Assembly (NCBI GenBank): GCA_964291265.2
Contig: OZ219747.1
Span: 1,920,001-1,984,000, forward strand
Direction: 5' to 3'
Source of the DNA: Alphaproteobacteria bacterium
GTDB taxonomy: Bacteria > Pseudomonadota > Alphaproteobacteria > SP197
Length of the DNA stretch: 64,000 nucleotides
Shown here: piece after piece, positions 2,703 through 22,954 of the stretch
Position numbering within the stretch: position 1 is the first letter of the stretch
Layout of the letters: each line of letters opens with the position of its first letter
Notes under the pieces: model-generated
What the model was told of the DNA's origin: nothing
The model's input: the letters and a program-made list of their open reading frames with translations, nothing else
Database searches by the model: none
Made by a program: the position numbers and the translations under genes

Positions 2703-3499
2703 ATGGTGCAGGATACTCACGAACATCGACAAGTCACGCAGCGGTCGCTCCCCGGCAGCCGCACGAAGGCTCGCGGCCGCGTGCATTCGTGCGGAACACG
2801 ATTCTCGGGTCAGCGGAACAGCTTCATGCCATCGCCGGCATGTCGTTCTCCACGCCGGGCAGGGCTTTCACCCGGCTGCGCAGGGTGGCGCCGTGGTTGC
2901 AGGAGATGCCGTTCGAGCCCGTTCGCCATGTCCTCAGGTGCCGTGCTGGATGCCTGGCAGGCGCCCCCACTTCAAGCGGGGTGATGTTCGATGACGCTCC
3001 CGGACAATGTTCGCATCCGCGGTGGCATGCTGCAGGTCCCGAAGATCGGGCCGATGCGGCTTCGCCGCCGGGGAAGAACCCTCAACCCCGGGCGGGCCGG
3101 TGCAGGCGGTGATCAGGCAGCGCTGCGGCAAGTGGTCGAGCGGCCCGACGATGGAAACGTGACCGGCCTCGACATGCGCGTGGGGCAGGTGGCTCAACAG
3201 CAACGAGCACATCCACCATCCACCGGATACGCGCGGCCTCGAAGCCCGCAGACGGCGAGCCAGCTTGCGCGGTTCCCGGCGTCGCAAGATGACGCGGCTT
3301 GCCGGACCGAATCGCCATGAGCCGCCGCAGCTGGCAGGATCATGTTTCTCGGGCCGTGGCTGGCGGAACCGTCGTCACTGAAGACCTCGACACACAGGCC
3401 ATGACGCGAAGGGAATGGTCGAGCGCCCCGGGACGAACGTGAAGGCGAAGTCCGGGCTGAACCGTGAAGTCCTCGCCACCGGCGGGGGGGGGTACGGTG
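2703..3499 (+). pseudogene. tnpB: TnpB (IS200/IS605-family RNA-guided nuclease) pseudogene, cut off by an IS66 end
   Basis: Fragments in several frames: RAFTRLRRVAPWLQEMPF, TLPDNVRIRGGMLQVPKIGPMRLRR, RuvC-I-like VTGLDM, and VVTEDL..AMT..KGMVERPGTNVKAKSGLNREVLATG. Confidence 0.75.
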
Positions 3500-4667
3500 G
3501 TAAGCGTTCGGCCACGCGGTGATTGTTGGTGATATTCACCGGTTGAGGATGCGTTTGGGAGGCGCACCACGTGGCGGTTCGCTGTTGGGTCCGAAGACGA
3601 TGGGTCCGGGTCGGGTTGCTCGTCGTTGGGGTGGCGGCAGGGTGATGAGGCCGTCGCGGTGCATGGCCAGAAAGGCGACATTCGCCATCATGTTCTTGAG
3701 GCCCCGTCGGGCTTGTATCAGCCGGTCTCGCGGCAGAAGGCGCGGGCGATGGCCGCACGGGTGGGGTGCTGGGTGATCAGGGAGCGCAACAGCGCCATCT
3801 CGTGCGCGGTGAAGTCACGGCCGTCGTAACGGCACTCGATCACCCCGGTTCCATGAGGTCCCTTCGACGCTCCGGGGTCATCGACCATGGCAGCCACGGG
3901 TCGAGGTCATCCGGCGGCTTGCCGCCGTTCTGCGCGCAGGCCTCAAGCCACTCATGAAGCCAGCGCCGAACATTGATGTTGTTCATGGCAAGGGTGCCGA
4001 TGACCGAGTACATGATGGCGGTGAAGGCGGCGCCCTCCTCGCTGTCGGAGCCGAAGCTCAGCTTTCTCGCGGTCACCGCACCCCGGAGGGTTCTCTCGGC
4101 AAAGTTGTTGTCCATGGGCACCTGGGGGTGGTCGACAAAGACGCACAGTCCCTCGCGGTGACGGATCAGGGAACGCAAGGGCTTCGCTTCGCGTGCACCC
4201 TCGGGCAAGGCGTCGAGTTCCTCCTGAGCCTGCCTGAACAGCGCCTCGACAGCCGCACGAAGGTCCTTCTGCAGGGCATTGAACCTCGCTGACTGACGCT
4301 TGCGTGCGGGATCGTAGTGCTTCAGCCGTTGCCCATTCAGTGTGTAGATCAGCGCGATCCTGTCGAGCCACTTGTCGCACCACTCTTCCAGCCCCTCTTG
4401 GCCTGCCGCAGCCTCGATCACATCGCGCCTGGAGTGCGCCCAGCAAAGGCAGAGGATCACCTTGCCATCAAGCTCACGCTCCAGTTTCCTGTAGACCACG
4501 TAGCGGTCGCAAACAAGGAAGACGACACCTTCGGTGGAGGCGAACAGCACCATGGCCACCCGGGTGCTGCGTGACGGGTCGATAAGGAAGAAGACGGAGT
4601 CGGCGCTGACCGCGGTCCACAGCCAGGCCTTCTGCGAGCGCCCCGAGGCCTTGAGGGACTGGATGCG
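3500..4667 (-). mobile_element. IS66-family element, 3' part only (tnpC C-terminus to right IR); ends at a group II intron
   Basis: Inverted near-identical copy of 21787-22954 (1168 bp); terminal GTAAGCGTTCGGCCACG at 3500; LVCDRY, CWAHSRR and PMDNNFAERTLR motifs; stop at 3840. Confidence 0.9.
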
Positions 4668-6586
4668 GTGTGCCAGGCGAACTGGCGGAAGGTAGGGGGT
4701 GAAAGTCCCCTGAAACGAAGGAGTAACCAAACCACGTTTCTCCGCGAGCCGTGCGTCGGTTCCCGCGAGGGGGCAGGCGAAGCGTCGGTAGCGGTACGGA
4801 TGGGCAGGGCTAATGAGCACCGAAAAGTCCGTTGTTCGGGGTGCCGAGGCTTTCGCATCGGTCGAAGGCAACATCGCAGGCATCGATTTGGTGAGATGTC
4901 GGCGAGCCCCGCGGTGTCGGAGAACCCATGCACGTCCGCACGCCTTCTGTTGGGACCCTGGGAGGTCTTCGAACTATCCCGCCTGTCGTGGCGGGACCGT
5001 GTAGGGAAAGGAGAAAGCCGAAGCCTATGAGGAACGGTTTGAAGAAGTCGGATGGGGCCGTAAGACCGGTGAAGGCGGCGAACAAGGGAGCGTCAGCTTC
5101 TGCGGAGTCGCTGGAGGAAAGGGCCTCAACCAAGGGGAATCCGGGACGCCAAAGCACGCACCGAACGCAGTGTCGGGCAAGTGTGCCACAGGCGGCGGAC
5201 CGGATACGGGAAGCTGCAGAGAGGAACCCGAAGGAGCGTCTCACTGCACTCTTCCATCACATTACGCCGGACGCGCTCCGGGCGGCCTACTTCGGTTTGA
5301 AGAAGGAAGCCTCGGCAGGTGTCGACGGCGTGACGTGGGCGGCGTATGGCGAGGGTCTGGACGAGCGCTTGCTTGATCTGCACTCGCGCCTGCATCGTGG
5401 GGGAGCGTACCGGGCGCCGCCGGTTCGGCGGGTTGAGATACCCAAGCCGGACGGCGGGACACGACCGCTCGGGATTGCCGCACTGGAGGACAAGATCGTC
5501 CAGAAGGCGGTTGTGGATGTGATCCTGACACCGATTTATGAGGTGGAGTTCCTTGGCTTCAGCTACGGGTTCCGACCGGGCCGAGGGGCGCATGACGCTC
5601 TCGACGCCCTGGCGTTCGGGATCGAGCGGCGCAAGGTCAACTGGATAGTCGACGCGGACATTCAGGGGTACTTCGACACAATCCCGAGGGATTGGTTGAT
5701 CAAGTTCCTGGAGCATCGCATTGGCGACAGGCGGGTGATCCGTCTGATCCGCAAGTGGCTGAACGCTGGCGTCATGACCGACGGATCATGGAGCGACACC
5801 GGTGCGGGCACGCCTCAGGGCGCCATTGTCAGCCCCTGCCTGGCGAACGTGTTTCTGCACTACGTGCTCGATCTGTGGTTTCACAAGGCATGGCGTCCGA
5901 AGGTTCCGAACGGTAAAGCGATCATTGTCCGCTACGCGGACGATATTGTGGTCGGGTTCCAGCATAAGCGGGATGCGGAGACATACCTTCGCGACGTTCG
6001 GGAGAGGCTGGACCGCTTTGGTCTCACCCTTCACCCGGACAAGACCCGTCTCGTTGAGTTTGGACGGTTTGCCAAGGCGAACCGGCGATCTCGCGGGGCG
6101 GGCAGGCCGGAGACGTTCGACTTCCTGGGCTTCACGCACTTCTGCACGGAGACCCGGAGAGGACGCTTCAGGCTTGGTCGCAAGCCGGTCGCAAAACGGG
6201 TCGCAAGGACCCTGGCGCGCATCGAGGAGGTGCTTCGCAATCGACGGCATCACGACATATGGGAGGTCGGCATGTGGCTTGGGCGAGTTGTCAATGGCTG
6301 GTCCAACTACTTCGCCGTTCCGGGGTCGACCCGATGGCTGCGCACGTTCCGCCAAAGGCTGCAACGCCTATGGCTGCGAGCGATCCGCCGCCGCTCCCAG
6401 CGCCACTGCTTTGACTGGAAGCGATTGGAGCGCATGACCGAGCTTCTTTGGCCGCGCGTCTCCATCCGCCACCCATGGCCGGACCAGCGGTTTACCGTCA
6501 AGCACCCGAGGTAGGAGCCGGATGGATTAACGTCCATGTCCGGATCTGTGCGGGGGGTGCGCAGCAATGCGCATCCCTACCGCGAC
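4668..6586 (+). mobile_element. Complete group II intron (class E-like) with RT/maturase ORF
   Basis: 5' GTGTG at 4668; domain V GAGCCGGATGGATTAACGTCCATGTCCGGATC; 3' CCCTACCGCGAC; candidate EBS1 CGCATC complementary to the 5' exon end GATGCG. Confidence 0.92.
5027..6514 (+). CDS. ltrA: Group II intron reverse transcriptase/maturase, no endonuclease domain
   Basis: IPKPDGGTRPLGI, SYGFRPGR, GTPQG, YADD, FDFLGF and GWSNYF motifs; C-terminus HPWPDQRFTVKHPR; ATG 5027 follows a purine-rich AAGGAG. Confidence 0.95.
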   Translation: MRNGLKKSDGAVRPVKAANKGASASAESLEERASTKGNPGRQSTHRTQCRASVPQAADRIREAAERNPKERLTALFHHITPDALRAAYFGLKKEASAGVDGVTWAAYGEGLDERLLDLHSRLHRGGAYRAPPVRRVEIPKPDGGTRPLGIAALEDKIVQKAVVDVILTPIYEVEFLGFSYGFRPGRGAHDALDALAFGIERRKVNWIVDADIQGYFDTIPRDWLIKFLEHRIGDRRVIRLIRKWLNAGVMTDGSWSDTGAGTPQGAIVSPCLANVFLHYVLDLWFHKAWRPKVPNGKAIIVRYADDIVVGFQHKRDAETYLRDVRERLDRFGLTLHPDKTRLVEFGRFAKANRRSRGAGRPETFDFLGFTHFCTETRRGRFRLGRKPVAKRVARTLARIEEVLRNRRHHDIWEVGMWLGRVVNGWSNYFAVPGSTRWLRTFRQRLQRLWLRAIRRRSQRHCFDWKRLERMTELLWPRVSIRHPWPDQRFTVKHPR

Positions 6587-8128
6587 CGGTCTGGATCGGC
6601 GCTGGCGACGCAAGCTGGGAGTGGGTCCGGTCGACCCTGCCTGGTCGCTGGGACCCGGAGACGGTCTGGATGGTGCGGTGTGGGCGGCGAACGAATTCGG
6701 AGGGGCTCCCTTGGGTGACAAGCGACTGTCGGCACGCCTGATGAAGAGTGCGGCTCTTCTGGCCTCCTGTCCCGGTTCCAAGATTCACGCGAGCACGGAT
6801 GCCGACAACACGGCGATCAGTGCTTTCTACCGCCTGATCGAGAAGCCGGTGGAGAGTGCGGTGACGGTGGCGAACATTCTTGCTCCGCATCGGGAGCGCA
6901 CGATCCGGCGCATCCAGGGTCAAACGACCGTGCTGGCGATCCAGGACGGGAGCGACCTCAATTTCTCCCGGCGGCCGGGATGCGAAGGTCTTCAGGTCAT
7001 CGGCAAGAACCAGACCTCCTCGTCGGCCCGGGGTCTGCACCTGCATGCGACGCTGGCGGTGAGCGAGACGGGGTTGCCGCTCGGGGTTCTGCGTCTGGGG
7101 TTCGATGCGGTGAAGCAGCGCTCCCCGGCGGCCGAGGAGCGGTTGAAGAGCCGACGCTCGATGGAAGGCTTCAAGGACATCGACGAAGCGGTTCGCGACG
7201 TCGCAAGCACGACGCGCGTGATCTCGGTCTGTGATCGGGAAGCGGACTTCTTCGAGCTGTTCGATCATCAACGTCTCAACCCACGGGTCGGGCTTCTGGT
7301 CCGAGCCCGACATGACCGGGTTCTCGGCAAGGGGCGCGCAAAGCTGTTTGCAACCTTGAGCGCAGGCCCACCCGACGGCGGCGTCACCGTCGAGGTCGAC
7401 GGCCTGAGCGAGCGTCCGAAGGCGAGCCGAACGAAGGCGCGGGCGGCCCGACGCAAACGCGTGGCTCAGTGCGCACTGCGGTTCCGCCTCGTGACCTTGC
7501 CCTCCACCCTCGAAGGCCGGGCGCCACTCGCCCTTTCCGGTGTCCACATCATCGAAACCGATCCTCCCGAGGGCGAGAACCCGGTGCAGTGGTTCCTGCT
7601 CACCACGCTCAAGGTGCGCAGCGCCGAGGATGCCGCCAGGATGGTTGGCTTCTACCTCCAGAGGTGGAAGGTCGAAGACTTCTTCCGCGTCCTCAAGTCA
7701 GGCTGTCGCACCGAGTTCCTGCTGTTCCGGACCGCAGAACGACTGCAGCGGGCCATCGCCATCAACGCCGTCATCGCCTGGCGCATCATGGTCATGACAC
7801 TGCTCGGACGGCAGGTTCCCGACTGTGAGCCCGAGCTGATGTTCACCGATCAAGAGCTGAGCTTCCTGCGCGACTACGCCGCCGAGAAGCGCATGACGCC
7901 GCCCGACCGCCTCGGGGATGCCGTCCGCCTGGTGGCCCATCTCGGCGGGTACCAGGATCGTAAGCATGATCCCGAGCCCGGACACCAGATCATGTGGCAC
8001 GGCGCGACCCGCCTGACCAGCGCCGTTCTTGGCCATCAAGTCGGCTTCCGGGCCGGACAGCGGCAACCCTTGCAACACATTCAGACCCTTGACGTCACGT
8101 CGTAATTGTCATTACTCGGCAGGCCTAG
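6587..8128 (+). mobile_element. IS4-family (IS50/Tn5-like) element, 3' part, copy 2; frame open to 8105 but native N-terminus missing
   Basis: ORF 6567-8105 has the DDE motifs; its first codons are intron sequence; same right end as copy 1. Confidence 0.88.
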
Positions 8129-8304
8129 GCATCGGCCATCACGGCGCCGGCGTTCTCGGTGCGACAGGTCATTTGCCGGATGCCGAACTCGGGAGTGGCC
8201 AGAAAGAAGGCCGACGGAATCGACTGGCCGAAAATCGTATCGACCCCGTGGCGGGCGAAGGCGGCGGCAAAGACCCTGGATGCGGAAAGGTTGCTGTCGG
8301 TCAT
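8125..8304 (-). pseudogene. Acetolactate synthase-like ThDP enzyme, N-terminal fragment truncated by IS4
   Basis: MTDSNLSASRVFAAAFARHGVDTIFGQSIPSAFFLA...RTENAGAVMADA, ending at the IS boundary; start overlaps the phzF-like stop. Confidence 0.75.
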
Positions 8305-18853: not shown

Positions 18854-19028
18854 GCAAGCGTTCGGTCACGTGGTGAGGACTGATTCTGGTTGGTTCCGGT
18901 CGTCAGCATTCGGTCAAAGGGGCGAGGATGATGGACATGACAGTGACATCTGCGCATTGTCCCGGTTTTCACTCAGCATTCTCTCAGACGCCATCATCCC
19001 CTTCATGACCGCGTGACCGAACGCCTAT
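18854..19028. mobile_element. 175-bp IS66-type MITE, or left-end region of the IS66 element
   Basis: GCAAGCGTTCGGTCACGTGGTGA at 18854 and ATGACCGCGTGACCGAACGCCTAT ending 19028; both resemble the IS66 terminal IR at 22931-22954. Confidence 0.7.
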
Positions 19029-20185
19029 CCGTGCCTGGGCCTGGCGGCTAGCACATCATCAAGGCTCATGGCCACCAGCACCGCCTCCGCCCAGGCCTCC
19101 AGTTCGGCGGCCGACGCGCCGCGGACCCGCTCGCGGACCGCGCCCGGCACATCACCGAAGCGCAAGGACAGTTGACGAAGAAGAAGTTCCGCGAGGGCCT
19201 CGCTCCGGCCTCGCTCGATTCCCTTCTCGATTCCCTCGGCTCTTCCCCTCTCGAGTCCTCTCTGGAGTCCCCTCTCGAGTCCTCTCTGAAGTCCCCTCTC
19301 GAGTCCTCTCTGAAGTCCCCTCTCGAGTCCTCTCTCGAGTCCCTCGGCTCTTCCCTGCTCAAGCCAGGTTTGTGCGATCGTGCCCATCAGAACCTCCCAA
19401 TGGTCCGGCTTCGTCCGGCGCAGTGACGCCTCCAGCATGGCCGGCGTCAGGCCTTTGTGCTCGGTCATATAGCGCACAATATGACGCTCGAACGCGCTCC
19501 CCGCAACCGGCCCGCCCGTTATCGCGTCCAGAAGCTCGGGGAGCACCTCCTTGGCAAAGGCAAACCTGAGGGCCAGAAGCCCGGACCGCACCTCGGGCGA
19601 GGTCGACAGCCGGTCCGGCGCCACCTCCCCGAGGTCGTGCACCACATAGGCGAACTCCCTGACGAACGACTCCATCCCCTCGGGCGCGTCGATCATCTCC
19701 AGCACCGAGCGCGCCGCCTTCCAGCGCCCCCGGCCGTGATAGAAGACCAGGGGGATGATCGCCGGCAGCTTGATGTCGTTCCCGCCGTCCTCGCTCTTGC
19801 TCCGCTCGCTCTTGCTCCGCTCGATCTCGCTCCGCCAGATGTTGACCATGTATCCCAGGAGCTGGAGCGGCGTCGCGGCGTCGACCTGGCTCTTGTGTTC
19901 GAGCAGCACGTAGAGGCGCGCATCTTGGCCGTCCTTCAATCTCACCCGGAACAGCGCATCGCACTGGCTGCTATGGGCGTCCTCGTCGACGAAACTGCCC
20001 TTGACCGCCTCGAGCGGCGCCTTGAGGTCGAGGAGGGCAGCCACCTTCGGCGGCAGGTAGTCGGTGAGCAGCGAAGCGGCGCGGGACGGTTCGGAGACCA
20101 GCGCCCGGAACAGCGCATCGTGACGCTTCACCGGAAATTTCTTCTTGCGAAAGGCCTCCGGCGTCTCAACGGGCATCACGCTCAC
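19025..20185 (-). CDS. Rpn/YhgA-family PD-(D/E)XK nuclease with DUF4351-like C-terminus; start uncertain (20131-20185)
   Basis: HDALF, CDALFRV, LYVLLEHKS, LPAIIPLVFYHG, MGTIAQ..LEQG, repeats, and LLRQL..RFGDVP motifs. Confidence 0.9.
   Translation of the reverse strand: MSVMPVETPEAFRKKKFPVKRHDALFRALVSEPSRAASLLTDYLPPKVAALLDLKAPLEAVKGSFVDEDAHSSQCDALFRVRLKDGQDARLYVLLEHKSQVDAATPLQLLGYMVNIWRSEIERSKSERSKSEDGGNDIKLPAIIPLVFYHGRGRWKAARSVLEMIDAPEGMESFVREFAYVVHDLGEVAPDRLSTSPEVRSGLLALRFAFAKEVLPELLDAITGGPVAGSAFERHIVRYMTEHKGLTPAMLEASLRRTKPDHWEVLMGTIAQTWLEQGRAEGLERGLERGLQRGLERGLQRGLERGLQRGLERGRAEGIEKGIERGRSEALAELLLRQLSLRFGDVPGAVRERVRGASAAELEAWAEAVLVAMSLDDVLAARPRHG
19245..19340. repeat. Four tandem 24-bp units (12-bp subunits) encoding GLER/GLQR in Rpn
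   Basis: CCCCTCTCGAGTCCTCTCT(G/C)(G/A)AGT x4. Confidence 0.9.
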
Positions 20186-20211: not shown

Positions 20212-22614
20212 ATGGAGCAGCTGACGGGAGGTGGTGACGGCCTATGTCGGGCGTCAGTGGCCTTGTCATGCGAGGCGCCTGACTGGCGTGCGCTCTATGA
20301 GGCGGAGCGGGTTCGTGCGGATGCGGCGGAAGCGCGTATGCGGTGTGCCAGGCGAACTGGCGGAAGGTAGGGGGTGAAAGTCCCCTGGAACGAAGGAGTA
20401 ACCAAACCACGTTTCTCCGCGAGCCGTGCGTCGGTTCCCGCGAGGGGGCAGGCGAAGCGTCGGTAGCGGTACGGATGGGCAGGGCTAATGAGCACCGAAA
20501 AAGCTATCATCCGGGGTGCCGAGGCTTTCGCATTGGTCGAAGGCAACATCGCAGGCATCGATTTGGTGAGATGTCGGCGAGCCCCGCGGTGTCAGAGAAC
20601 CCATGCACGTCCGCACGCCTTCTGTTGGGACCCTGGGAGATCTTCAAACCGTCCCGCCGGTTGTGGCGGGACCGCATGGGGAAGGAGAAAACCGAAGCCT
20701 ATGATGTACGGTTTGAAGAAGTCGGATGAGGCCGTAGTACCTGTGAAGGCGGCGAACAAGGAAGCGTTAGCTTCTGCGGAGTCGCTGGAGGAAAGGGCCT
20801 CAACCAAGGGGAATCCGGGACGCTAAAGCACGCACCGAACGCAGTGTCGGGCAAGCGTGCCACAGGCGGCGGATCGGATACGGGAAGCCGCAGGCTAGTC
20901 CAGTGGTTTGCCGTCCAGTACCCGAGGTAGGAGCCGGATGGATTAACGTCCACGTCCGGATCTGCGCGGGGGGTGCGCAGCAATGCGCATCCCTACCGCG
21001 TCTGACCTGCGCCGTGCGAAGAATTCTGCCCGTGCCCGTGCGGGCACATTCAAGTTTCATCTCGACCGCACTCGTGATCAGCTCAAGGAGGCTCGCCGGG
21101 AGGTGAAGCGTGGACAGGCCCGAGCGGAGGCGCTGGAGCGGGAAAGGGACGCTCTGAAGCTCAAGAACGCTGAACAGGCGAGCGAGCTGAGGAATCTCCG
21201 CGGGACGCGTGCCAAGCACGCGACGGCGCGCTTCGGGTCGAAGAGCGAGAAACGGAAGAAGAAGGAAGGCACCGGGAACAAGCGGGGTCAGCAACCCGGC
21301 AAGAGCGGCCACGGGCGCACTCCGCGTCCGAAGCTCAAGGAGAAGCACGAACGCCATGATCCACCGGCATCGCAGCGCACGTGCCCGTGTTGCGGCGAGC
21401 CCTATGTGGCCAACGGCAGCCACGAGACCTCGATCATGGAGGTCCATGTCAAGGCTCATATCCGGCGGATTGAACGTGGGCGTTGGCGCCGTGGTTGTCA
21501 GTGTTCGTCGGCGCCTGCGGAGATCATCGCGCCGCCACCTTTGCGCTTGCTTGCGAATACCCCCTTCGGCATCAGTGTCTGGGCATGCGTGCTCTATGAG
21601 CGCTTCGCCTGCTTGCGTCCCCTGCGCCGGGTCTCGCGATGGCTGGAAGACCAGGGACTGCCGATGGCGCCGGGAACGATCGCTGGCGGCATGAAGAAGA
21701 TGACGCCGATGTTCGCGCCTCTCGCTCAGGCCATCCTCGATCATCAGAACCGGCTGACGGTGCGCCACGGCGACGAGACCAGCTGGCGCATCCAGTCCCT
21801 CAAGGCCTCGGGGCGCTCGCAGAAGGCCTGGCTGTGGACCGCGGTCAGCGCCGACTCCGTCTTCTTCCTTATCGACCCGTCACGCAGCACCCGGGTGGCC
21901 ATGGTGCTGTTCGCCTCCACCGAAGGTGTCGTCTTCCTTGTTTGCGACCGCTACGTGGTCTACAGGAAACTGGAGCGTGAGCTTGATGGCAAGGTGATCC
22001 TCTGCCTTTGCTGGGCGCACTCCAGGCGCGATGTGATCGAGGCTGCGGCAGGCCAAGAGGGGCTGGAAGAGTGGTGCGACAAGTGGCTCGACAGGATCGC
22101 GCTGATCTACACACTGAATGGGCAACGGCTGAAGCACTACGATCCCGCACGCAAGCGTCAGTCAGCGAGGTTCAATGCCCTGCAGAAGGACCTTCGTGCG
22201 GCTGTCGAGGCGCTGTTCAGGCAGGCTCAGGAGGAACTCGACGCCTTGCCCGAGGGTGCACGCGAAGCGAAGCCCTTGCGTTCCCTGATCCGTCACCGCG
22301 AGGGACTGTGCGTCTTTGTCGACCATCCCCAGGTGCCCATGGACAACAACTTTGCCGAGAGAACCCTCCGGGGTGCGGTGACCGCGAGAAAGCTGAGCTT
22401 CGGCTCCGACAGCGAGGAAGGCGCCGCCTTCACCGCCATCATGTACTCGGTCATCGGCACCCTTGCCATGAACAACATCAATGTTCGGCGCTGGCTTCAT
22501 GAGTGGCTTGAGGCCTGCGCGCAGAACGGCGGCAAGCCGCCGGATGACCTCGACCCGTGGCTGCCATGGTCGATGACCCCGGAGCGTCGAAGGGACCTCA
22601 TGGAACCGGGGTGA
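20212..22614 (+). CDS. tnpC: IS66-family transposase TnpC split by an intron: join(20212..20342,21003..22614), 580 aa
   Basis: Exon 1 MEQ...PDWRALYEAERVRADAAEARM-CG joins T-GAC-CTG in frame (R-D-L-R-R); CPCCG zinc ribbon, HGDETSW, LVCDRY, CWAHSRR and DNNFAER motifs. Confidence 0.88.
20343..21002 (+). mobile_element. ORF-less group II intron (660 nt), deletion derivative of the 4668-6586 intron family
   Basis: Same GTGTGCCAGGCGA 5' end, domains I-III and domain V/VI; RT frame has a stop at 20824-20826 and lacks ~1.26 kb; ends GCGTC instead of GCGAC. Confidence 0.9.
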
Positions 22615-22900
22615 TCGAGTGCCGTTACGACGGCCGTGACTTCACCGCGCACGAGATGGCGCTGTTGCGCTCCCTGATCACCCAGCACCCCACCCGTGCG
22701 GCCATCGCCCGCGCCTTCTGCCGCGAGACCGGCTGATACAAGCCCGACGGGGCCTCAAGAACATGATGGCGAATGTCGCCTTTCTGGCCATGCACCGCGA
22801 CGGCCTCATCACCCTGCCGCCACCCCAACGACGAGCAACCCGACCCGGACCCATCGTCTTCGGACCCAACAGCGAACCGCCACGTGGTGCGCCTCCCAAA
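22611..22900 (+). pseudogene. DUF4338 (DruA-like) N-terminal remnant inside the IS66 element; also present in the 3500-4667 copy
   Basis: RYDGRDFTAHEMALLRSLI...TRAAIARAFCRETG*YKPDG / LKNMMANVAFLAMHRDGLITLPPP; one internal stop plus a frameshift; family call from memory of the motif. Confidence 0.6.
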
Positions 22901-22930: not shown

Positions 22931-22954
22931 ATCACCGCGTGGCCGAACGCTTAC
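22931..22954. repeat. IS66 right terminal inverted repeat
   Basis: ATCACCGCGTGGCCGAACGCTTAC; identity with the 3500 copy ends exactly at TTAC. Confidence 0.85.

Follow-up and report, generated by a model that had tools for sequence, protein, structure and literature searches.

Bacterial group II introns without an ORF are, according to a review of the subject, nearly always accompanied by a related IEP in the genome (PMC4424553). In Thermosynechococcus elongatus, TeI3 introns are served by driver IEPs such as that of TeI4c (Mohr et al. 2010, PMC2882425). The ORF-less intron described here, i2, resembles TeI3, as presented in that report, in having lost its ORF by a single deletion that left remnants of both ORF ends, in its many copies, in changed EBS motifs that pair well with the IBS at new sites, and in sharing its genome with a close, RT-coding relative, here designated i1. 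The TeI introns of that report encode an En domain and lie mostly outside genes or in other introns, whereas the RT of i1 shows no En domain and is likely of class E, and i2 is found mainly in an IS66 transposase gene. Action in trans was tested for the TeI introns (PMC2882425); for i2, we infer it.

A group II intron in the tnpC gene of an IS66 element has been described as Sr.md.I1, in the Sinorhizobium medicae IS66 transposase (PMC4615759). As reported there, Sr.md.I1 and its sister RmInt2 share with i1 and i2 a bias towards the lagging-strand template and an EBS3 that diverges between sisters (G-C vs A-U); their IEPs are partly interchangeable, and RmInt2 uses both inverted repeats, securing a lagging-strand target. 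They are described as class D introns with their own ORFs, whereas the present two sisters, one of them ORF-less, occupy opposite strands of the IS. RmInt1 in ISRm2011-2 likewise interrupts a transposase gene and is reported to fill IS copies on the lagging-strand template first, and an engineered, ORF-deleted RmInt1 homes well with its IEP in trans (PMC3035460, PMC1802570, PMC5894124). RmInt1, which was read by its authors as a control of IS spread and splices at 0.07% (PMC3035460), differs from i2 in its IS630-family host, its autonomy and its single target strand; splicing was measured there, whereas i2 is known from sequence. These reports, as far as they describe the systems, provide a precedent for mobilisation of i2 in trans (PMC2882425, PMC4615759, PMC1802570). 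IStrons, in which a self-splicing intron is physically joined to an IS, offer another parallel; the IStron as described is a single stable chimera with a group I intron (PMC4227781), whereas i2 appears as a group II invader. We considered i2 and its IS66 as an IStron and rejected this, as the intron is group II, internal, and missing at site A (its insertion point on the sense strand of tnpC) from 13 of 27 IS copies. Instead, i2 is probably a non-autonomous intron that has lost its RT gene and retrohomed into resident IS66 copies by means of its sister's RT.

The window analysed here is a stretch of 64,000 nt from an alphaproteobacterial genome, and it contains both introns and one IS66 copy, with the following features.

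4668 to 6586, forward strand: i1, the full-length sister intron, a chimera whose 5' flank is IS66 antisense and whose 3' flank is of the IS4 family
5027 to 6514, forward strand: RT/maturase ORF of i1, open, 495 aa, likely bacterial class E
20212 to 20215, forward strand: ATG start of the preliminary description, in a repeated flank upstream of an Rpn/YhgA-like gene, outside the IS
20216 to 20342, forward strand: remnant of tnpC exon 1 (IS66 nt 145-271); homologs share the N-terminus
20343 to 21002, forward strand: ORF-less group II intron i2, GUGUG...ACCGCGUC, sense to tnpC
20701 to 20900, forward strand: RT ORF remnant with two stop codons, the deletion break lying between 20893 and 20900
20931 to 20962, forward strand: domain V of i2, with AGC triad and two-base bulge
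20964 to 21002, forward strand: domain VI of i2, with predicted branch A at 20995, an ATG at 20983 inside the stem, and the UC end
21003 to 22614, forward strand: tnpC exon 2, with zinc-finger cysteines and the IS66 DDE domain, identical to the copy at C2:3880494
21786 to 21787, reverse strand: empty site B, the antisense target of i1
22611 to 22736, forward strand: truncated DruA/DUF4338-like ORF inside the IS
22941 to 22954, forward strand: right inverted repeat of IS66, ...CGCTTAC

The preliminary description had reported an intron of 660 nt without an RT, lying in sense orientation in tnpC, and this is borne out by Rfam, by the fold and by alignment with i1. The 660 nt of i2 score 170 bits with RF02005 (cut-off 49), a match that carries the domain I-IV structure, and the 5' end, GUGUG at 20343, fits GUGYG. 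The folding z-score is -5.05 (against 20 shuffles), and domains V and VI fold as expected, with the AGC triad, the bulge and the bulged A of domain VI; these two domains score 33.6 bits (E = 1e-4) with RF00029, below its cut-off of 40. The 3' end, UC, departs from the AY rule for IIB-like group II introns: the penultimate base is U in i2 only, and i1 and three relatives end in AC. On this comparison, the UC ending appears to be a single-base variant of an otherwise clear group II (IIB-like) member. The change of the penultimate A to U, together with EBS1 pairing at 5 of 6 positions, could have lowered the activity of i2.

The alignment with i1 shows 94% identity over nt 1-551 and 558-658, with some 1,265 nt of the RT ORF missing from i2. 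In the genome (4.83 Mb in two contigs, of which C2 holds the loci listed here), i2 is present in 13 full-length copies that are 100% identical and in three more that are damaged or split. The ORF deletion junction, used as a DNA pattern, gave 0 matches in metagenome_contigs and 0 in genome_contigs, collections that may not cover this genome's own records. The intron query found matches in 13 of 60 other genomes, the four best being full-length introns at other targets, and none matched exon 1, with seven candidates scored per genome. At C2:1375030-1377785 the present genome holds a third variant of the intron, which has an EBS set distinct from the others; relatives at 85-90% (L002-L005) lie in four other genomes, at other targets.

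An unspliced message reaches a stop 8 codons into i2. A truncated TnpC starting inside the intron at 20983 had been raised earlier as a caveat, and this ATG does open a frame of 543 aa, which keeps the whole IS66 domain (NF033517, 273 bits) and has a G-rich tract 8 nt upstream of its start; if TnpC were produced from it without splicing, the intron would cost the IS little. This ATG and the G-rich tract are both paired in the domain VI stem, however, and opening them is predicted to cost 27.6 kcal/mol, compared with 19.7 and 9.3 for two native candidates and 10.5 for the ATG at 20212; the product would also lack the conserved N-terminal 57 residues. On the modelled fold, a start at 20983 is unlikely to be a major route, and we give hardly any credence to the reading in which it spares the IS the cost of the intron. 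The 543-aa frame calls for a warning on annotation: starting in domain VI, it is what gene callers present as the transposase, in a cluster of 23 sequences.

Removal of 20343-21002 yields an open frame of 580 aa from 20212, and the resulting junction, ATGCG/TGACC, is base for base that of the 13 of 27 listed IS copies that are free at site A. The comparison with intron-free IS copies proposed in the preliminary description thus finds the same junction within the same genome. The restored frame itself stands only in part: it opens on intron removal but is not the transposase's own frame. The whole IS66 element is 2,224 nt long, with ends GTAAGCG...CGCTTAC and an ORF of 594 aa from IS nt 99. The window copy begins at IS nt 145 (position 20216), whereas the other 26 of the 27 copies all have upstream IS sequence; IS nt 1-144, comprising the left repeat, the native start codon and the first 16 codons, are absent from it, and the ATG at 20212 derives from the flank. 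The copy also has no target duplication and is not a complete mobile IS66. A DDE insertion sequence without its left repeat would not transpose. Because this repeat is missing, the window copy would be immobile whether or not i2 splices.

The flank with the ATG at 20212 recurs before at least 11 other loci, where it ends in ...GTCATGG or ...GACGTGG and then diverges, and the right side of the window IS matches the continuation of the left flank. Insertion of the IS followed by loss of about 190 nt fits this sequence arrangement and would account for the window copy, and both a strain-specific deletion and an assembly join are possible causes of the 20215/20216 joint. In runs X1, X2, X3 and X5 (4 of 7), no bridging of this joint was seen among the 15 matches listed (best 15 of 28); at 20215, sequence in runs X1-X3 goes on into the uninserted flank, and at 20216, sequence in runs X1-X2 goes on into a normal IS left end. 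The neighbouring Rpn/YhgA-like gene (19025-20185, reverse strand) has short tandem repeats in its 3' part and at least 10 related copies in the genome.

In runs X1 and X2, contigs contain the joint of 20342 to 21003, which we considered as evidence of splicing and rejected, as intron-free DNA copies explain it. For the same reason, the 20342/21003 junction is not diagnostic of splicing, since intron-free copies give it from DNA and would confound RT-PCR. No SNP unique to intron-bearing copies was found in the 8 copies tested, so short-read junction counts are not assignable to copies.

Assignment of the element to the IS66 family rests on matches to PF03050 and NF033517 over cut-off, and on the ends and 8-bp duplications of sister copies. 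Inverted repeats of the GTAAGCG type and an 8-bp target duplication are hallmarks of IS66. The 2,224-nt element shows no frame for tnpA or tnpB, and a scan for sigma-70 promoters that covered the IS left end and the window region gave no hit. A terminator-like hairpin lies just inside the IS left end (L016:189-210; one found, 0.3 expected), which is weak evidence. The second, DruA/DUF4338-like ORF of the IS is longer in a divergent copy (L019:2019-2939, PF14236) and shortened in the main subfamily.

Twenty-seven IS copies could be scored at both site A and site B, the latter being the antisense insertion point of i1 after IS nt 1055; 13 carry i2 only, 10 i1 only, one both and three neither. 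Thus, 14 of the 27 have i2 at site A, and 24 are filled by i1 and/or i2. IS fragments missing one site (C2:1360422, 1923500-1924667, 2127983/2144386 and smaller ones) lie outside this table, and the copy at 955759 and 936054 was counted as a single element on the basis of its matching target duplications. Of the i2-bearing copies, seven are complete at both ends, carry an intact intron and read as a 594-aa frame once it is removed; the others comprise four that are frameshifted or broken, one without the right end, one with an IS110 element in the intron, and the window copy. Two copies, at C2:927480-929703 and C2:181806-184069, are intron-free and complete at both ends; they are flanked by 8-bp duplications, and each has the DDE motifs in a 594-aa frame. 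Against 257 conserved columns, they show 38 and 35 departures, compared with 35-38 in the rest, and the former has two private changes, Y375H and E384V.

The central claim of the preliminary description was that transposition of this IS depends on splicing, the intron acting as a switch: the IS would move mainly via intron-bearing copies, with TnpC made only after maturase-assisted splicing. The seven intact copies that require splicing outnumber the two intron-free ones, the unspliced message ends early, exon 1 encodes an N-terminus that is conserved (matched by 33 of 120 homologs), and exons are identical in two pairs of intron-bearing copies, all of which could be expected of such a switch. 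The claim is nevertheless unsupported for the window copy, which has neither the left end nor the native start, and, judging by sequence, for the genome at large, where the two intact intron-free copies could offer a splicing-independent source of transposase and depart from conserved columns no more than other copies do. Matches to the IS were found in 7 of 22 same-genus genomes, and in two of these a related IS66 is unbroken at site B, in one (G010) also across site A. RmInt1, moreover, splices in its IS at only the rate quoted above (PMC3035460), and spread of intron-bearing IS copies should scramble their orientation, whereas 12 of 13 scorable ones face the same way. We regard the switch as quite improbable. 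As a switch i2 matters little, the window copy being crippled and intron-free copies remaining.

Orientation was scored relative to replication. The turning points of the GC skew are near 0.72 and 3.29 Mb, and dnaA, parB, gidA and hemE lie at 0.65-0.79 Mb; the zones 0.72-0.815 Mb, within which alone the origin is placed, and 3.285-3.325 Mb were treated as ambiguous. With the i2 duplicate (C2:2242635) and the chimeric i1 of the window left out, 13 of 14 scorable i2 insertions lie on the lagging-strand template (p = 0.0018; one more is ambiguous), as do 12 of 13 of i1 (p = 0.0034; one ambiguous), the ambiguous copies being one near the origin and one near the terminus; these p-values treat copies as independent and so overstate the case, as two intron-bearing pairs share identical exons. 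The exceptions on the leading-strand template are the i2 at C2:2579874 and the i1 at C2:2666740. The orientation of the IS itself is 15 vs 10 (p = 0.42), and for IS66 in Proteobacteria no significant orientation bias is given in a published survey (PMC3971601). Site A is filled in 12 of the 15 copies whose sense strand is the lagging template, compared with 1 of the 10 others; for site B the corresponding values are 1 of 15 and 9 of 10. The two introns occur together in a single copy among 27 (Fisher p = 0.0003), a near exclusion explained by their common preference for the lagging-strand template on opposite IS strands. Such a preference is described for endonuclease-minus introns (PMC4615759, PMC1802570, PMC5894124), and class E and ORF-less introns show a moderate lagging bias in a genome survey (PMC8919778). 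Since spread of intron-bearing IS copies would scramble the strand bias, the introns appear to have entered IS copies already in place. The identical-exon pairs may be duplicates or passengers, and together with C2:2579874 they leave room for a few passenger-spread events.

The target-pairing motifs of i2, which are its own, are placed as follows.

20503 to 20508, forward strand: predicted EBS2, GCUAUC, facing exon GGAAGC at -15 to -10, with 5 of 6 positions paired as judged by eye
20529 to 20533, forward strand: predicted EBS1, CGCAU, complementary to exon AUGCG but unpaired at the sixth position
20594, forward strand: EBS3, A, facing the +1 U of exon 2

Intron nt 252 is identified as EBS3 because, in all six introns for which the two ends are known, it complements the base that opens the 3' exon (A/T, G/C, C/G, A/T, C/G and G/C), and the EBS3 of i2 has changed in step with its target. 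EBS1 pairs at 5-6 of 6 positions in all 11 rows compared (5 of 6 in i2), and GGAAGC is retained at all three target variants. One i2 target is not an IS: at C2:2219838 (region C2:2217500-2220700, L018:669-3205) an oligopeptide-type ABC ATPase gene is interrupted by the intron close to its 3' end, at an IBS resembling site A, GGAAGCGGGCATGCG/T, and intron removal reopens the ATPase frame into a Cys-rich tail behind the intron. Independent insertions of i2 at EBS-matching sites are thus found at IS66 site A in two subfamilies and in the ABC-ATPase gene. A partial duplicate of the ABC ATPase locus at C2:2242062-2249134 contains an intron broken up by insertions.

In a tree of exon sequences from 25 of the 27 copies, two short ones being left out, the i2-bearing copies do not form one clade: six changes are needed, at least four of them forced by well-supported branches, and one i2 copy belongs to a subfamily 72-81 substitutions away, whose bases it keeps both before and after the intron. 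The tree is weak, the IS copies being mosaics and 8 of 20 inner branches open; clustering of intron labels on it is marginal against shuffles (38 of 500). Gene conversion could, on this pattern, move an intron among mosaic IS copies, and one might suppose that i2 entered once or a few times, was then copied by conversion or duplication, and has lost splicing and mobility. The identity of all full i2 copies would fit such a history, as would the replacement by U, in i2 only, of a conserved penultimate A. It leaves unexplained, however, the strand bias and the precise insertion in an unrelated ABC gene with matching IBS, and it accords poorly with a divergent-subfamily copy without co-converted flanks and with the alteration of EBS3 in step with the target. 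We consider this history very improbable.

The intact RT/maturase reported earlier at 5027-6514 was confirmed: the ORF matches TIGR04416 with 356 bits (cut-off 300), and RVT_1 and GIIM were found by Pfam, which found no endonuclease domain. With RF02005, i1 scores about 170 bits. The intron had been called near-identical to i2; it is indeed a close relative, at 94%, but the two diverge by 6%, and EBS1, EBS2, EBS3 and the penultimate base are among the positions that distinguish them. The genome contains 18 RT matches, 16 full-domain and two fragments, and all 16 full-domain matches sit in copies of i1 or its 98% variant. Retrohoming requires an RT. Because i2 has none and every full-domain RT belongs to i1 or the 98% variant, help in trans from an i1-family RT is the likely route for i2, which is a strong inference from gene content; the part of the preliminary description that placed the maturase in trans is thereby upheld as likely, and the dependence of transposition on splicing is unsupported. 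Among the RTs of three S. meliloti GR4 plasmids, that of i1 is closest to a split RT on pRmeGR4b (51%, 350 bits; the other full-length RTs reach 34-37%), a plasmid for which a disrupted class E intron, S.me.I4, is reported (PMC5894124). The IEP of i1 is likely of class E on this comparison, which covers those three plasmids, classes F and G being outside it.

Under the preferred reading, retrohoming of a borrowed-RT intron into resident IS copies, the events would run as follows. i2 is found precisely in the sense strand of tnpC in 14 IS copies, and one ABC-ATPase gene of the host also contains it. Transcription would give a precursor from which the i1 protein would splice i2, forming a mobile particle. 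To judge from the strand bias and the work on RmInt1, this endonuclease-less particle would enter the lagging-strand template at replication forks. As i1 enters the IS antisense, the orientation of an IS copy appears to set which intron it receives, the pattern seen with 24 of 27 copies hit. The IS would be damped as a result: antisense i1 insertions presumably cannot be spliced from tnpC mRNA, the seven sense-insertion copies would need splicing, and the two intron-free copies could still make TnpC.

By this account i2 is a parasite on a parasite of a known kind, rather than a splicing switch. The orientation split of one IS between two sister introns is a modest new point; searches of the open-licence literature did not show two sister introns dividing one IS by strand, although supplementary intron lists could hold similar cases. 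The genome is an unusually clean record of an ORF-less intron that retargeted with a compensatory EBS3 change, a presumably borrowed RT and an IS population split by replication orientation. It gives a rule by which in-place retrohoming can be told from passenger spread with a single assembly, and i1 and i2 are a ready pair for the study of trans-mobilisation in a likely class E intron. A bolder proposal has i1 and i2, working on one RT, braking an IS66 burst in an orientation-complete way, antisense insertions being knockouts and sense ones splice-dependent, with seven of nine TnpC-capable copies and the host ABC-transporter ATPase with its Cys-rich tail answering to one maturase. We hold this to be rather unlikely; if true, the host would have reason to keep the RT, and a bacterium would have taken a first step towards a splicing factor shared among genes.

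Several further observations concern the history of the introns. Both parent arrangements of the chimeric i1 (window 3499-8129) occur within 15 kb upstream of it (C2:1910675-1928129), and recombination between intron copies or mis-assembly would explain the chimera. The IS copies at C2:1144144 and 3293735, 96 substitutions apart, share their altered bases immediately 5' of i1, a hint that recombination carried the intron plus flank between them. No head-to-tail intron joint was found in the assembly; a contig of run X3 has an AC-ending intron 3' end joined directly to an intron 5' end (window 20343, 21000), and this joint may represent either an intron circle or a tandem insertion. Finally, the introns have themselves been invaded by a transposable element.

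C2:2594634, 2668812 and 3032853 (L017:412-2384): IS110-family insert in introns

The insert, an identical 1,966 bp with an IS110-family transposase, lies between intron nt 7 and 8 in two copies of i1 and one of i2, a placement that suggests that the IS110 element targets the intron 5' end.
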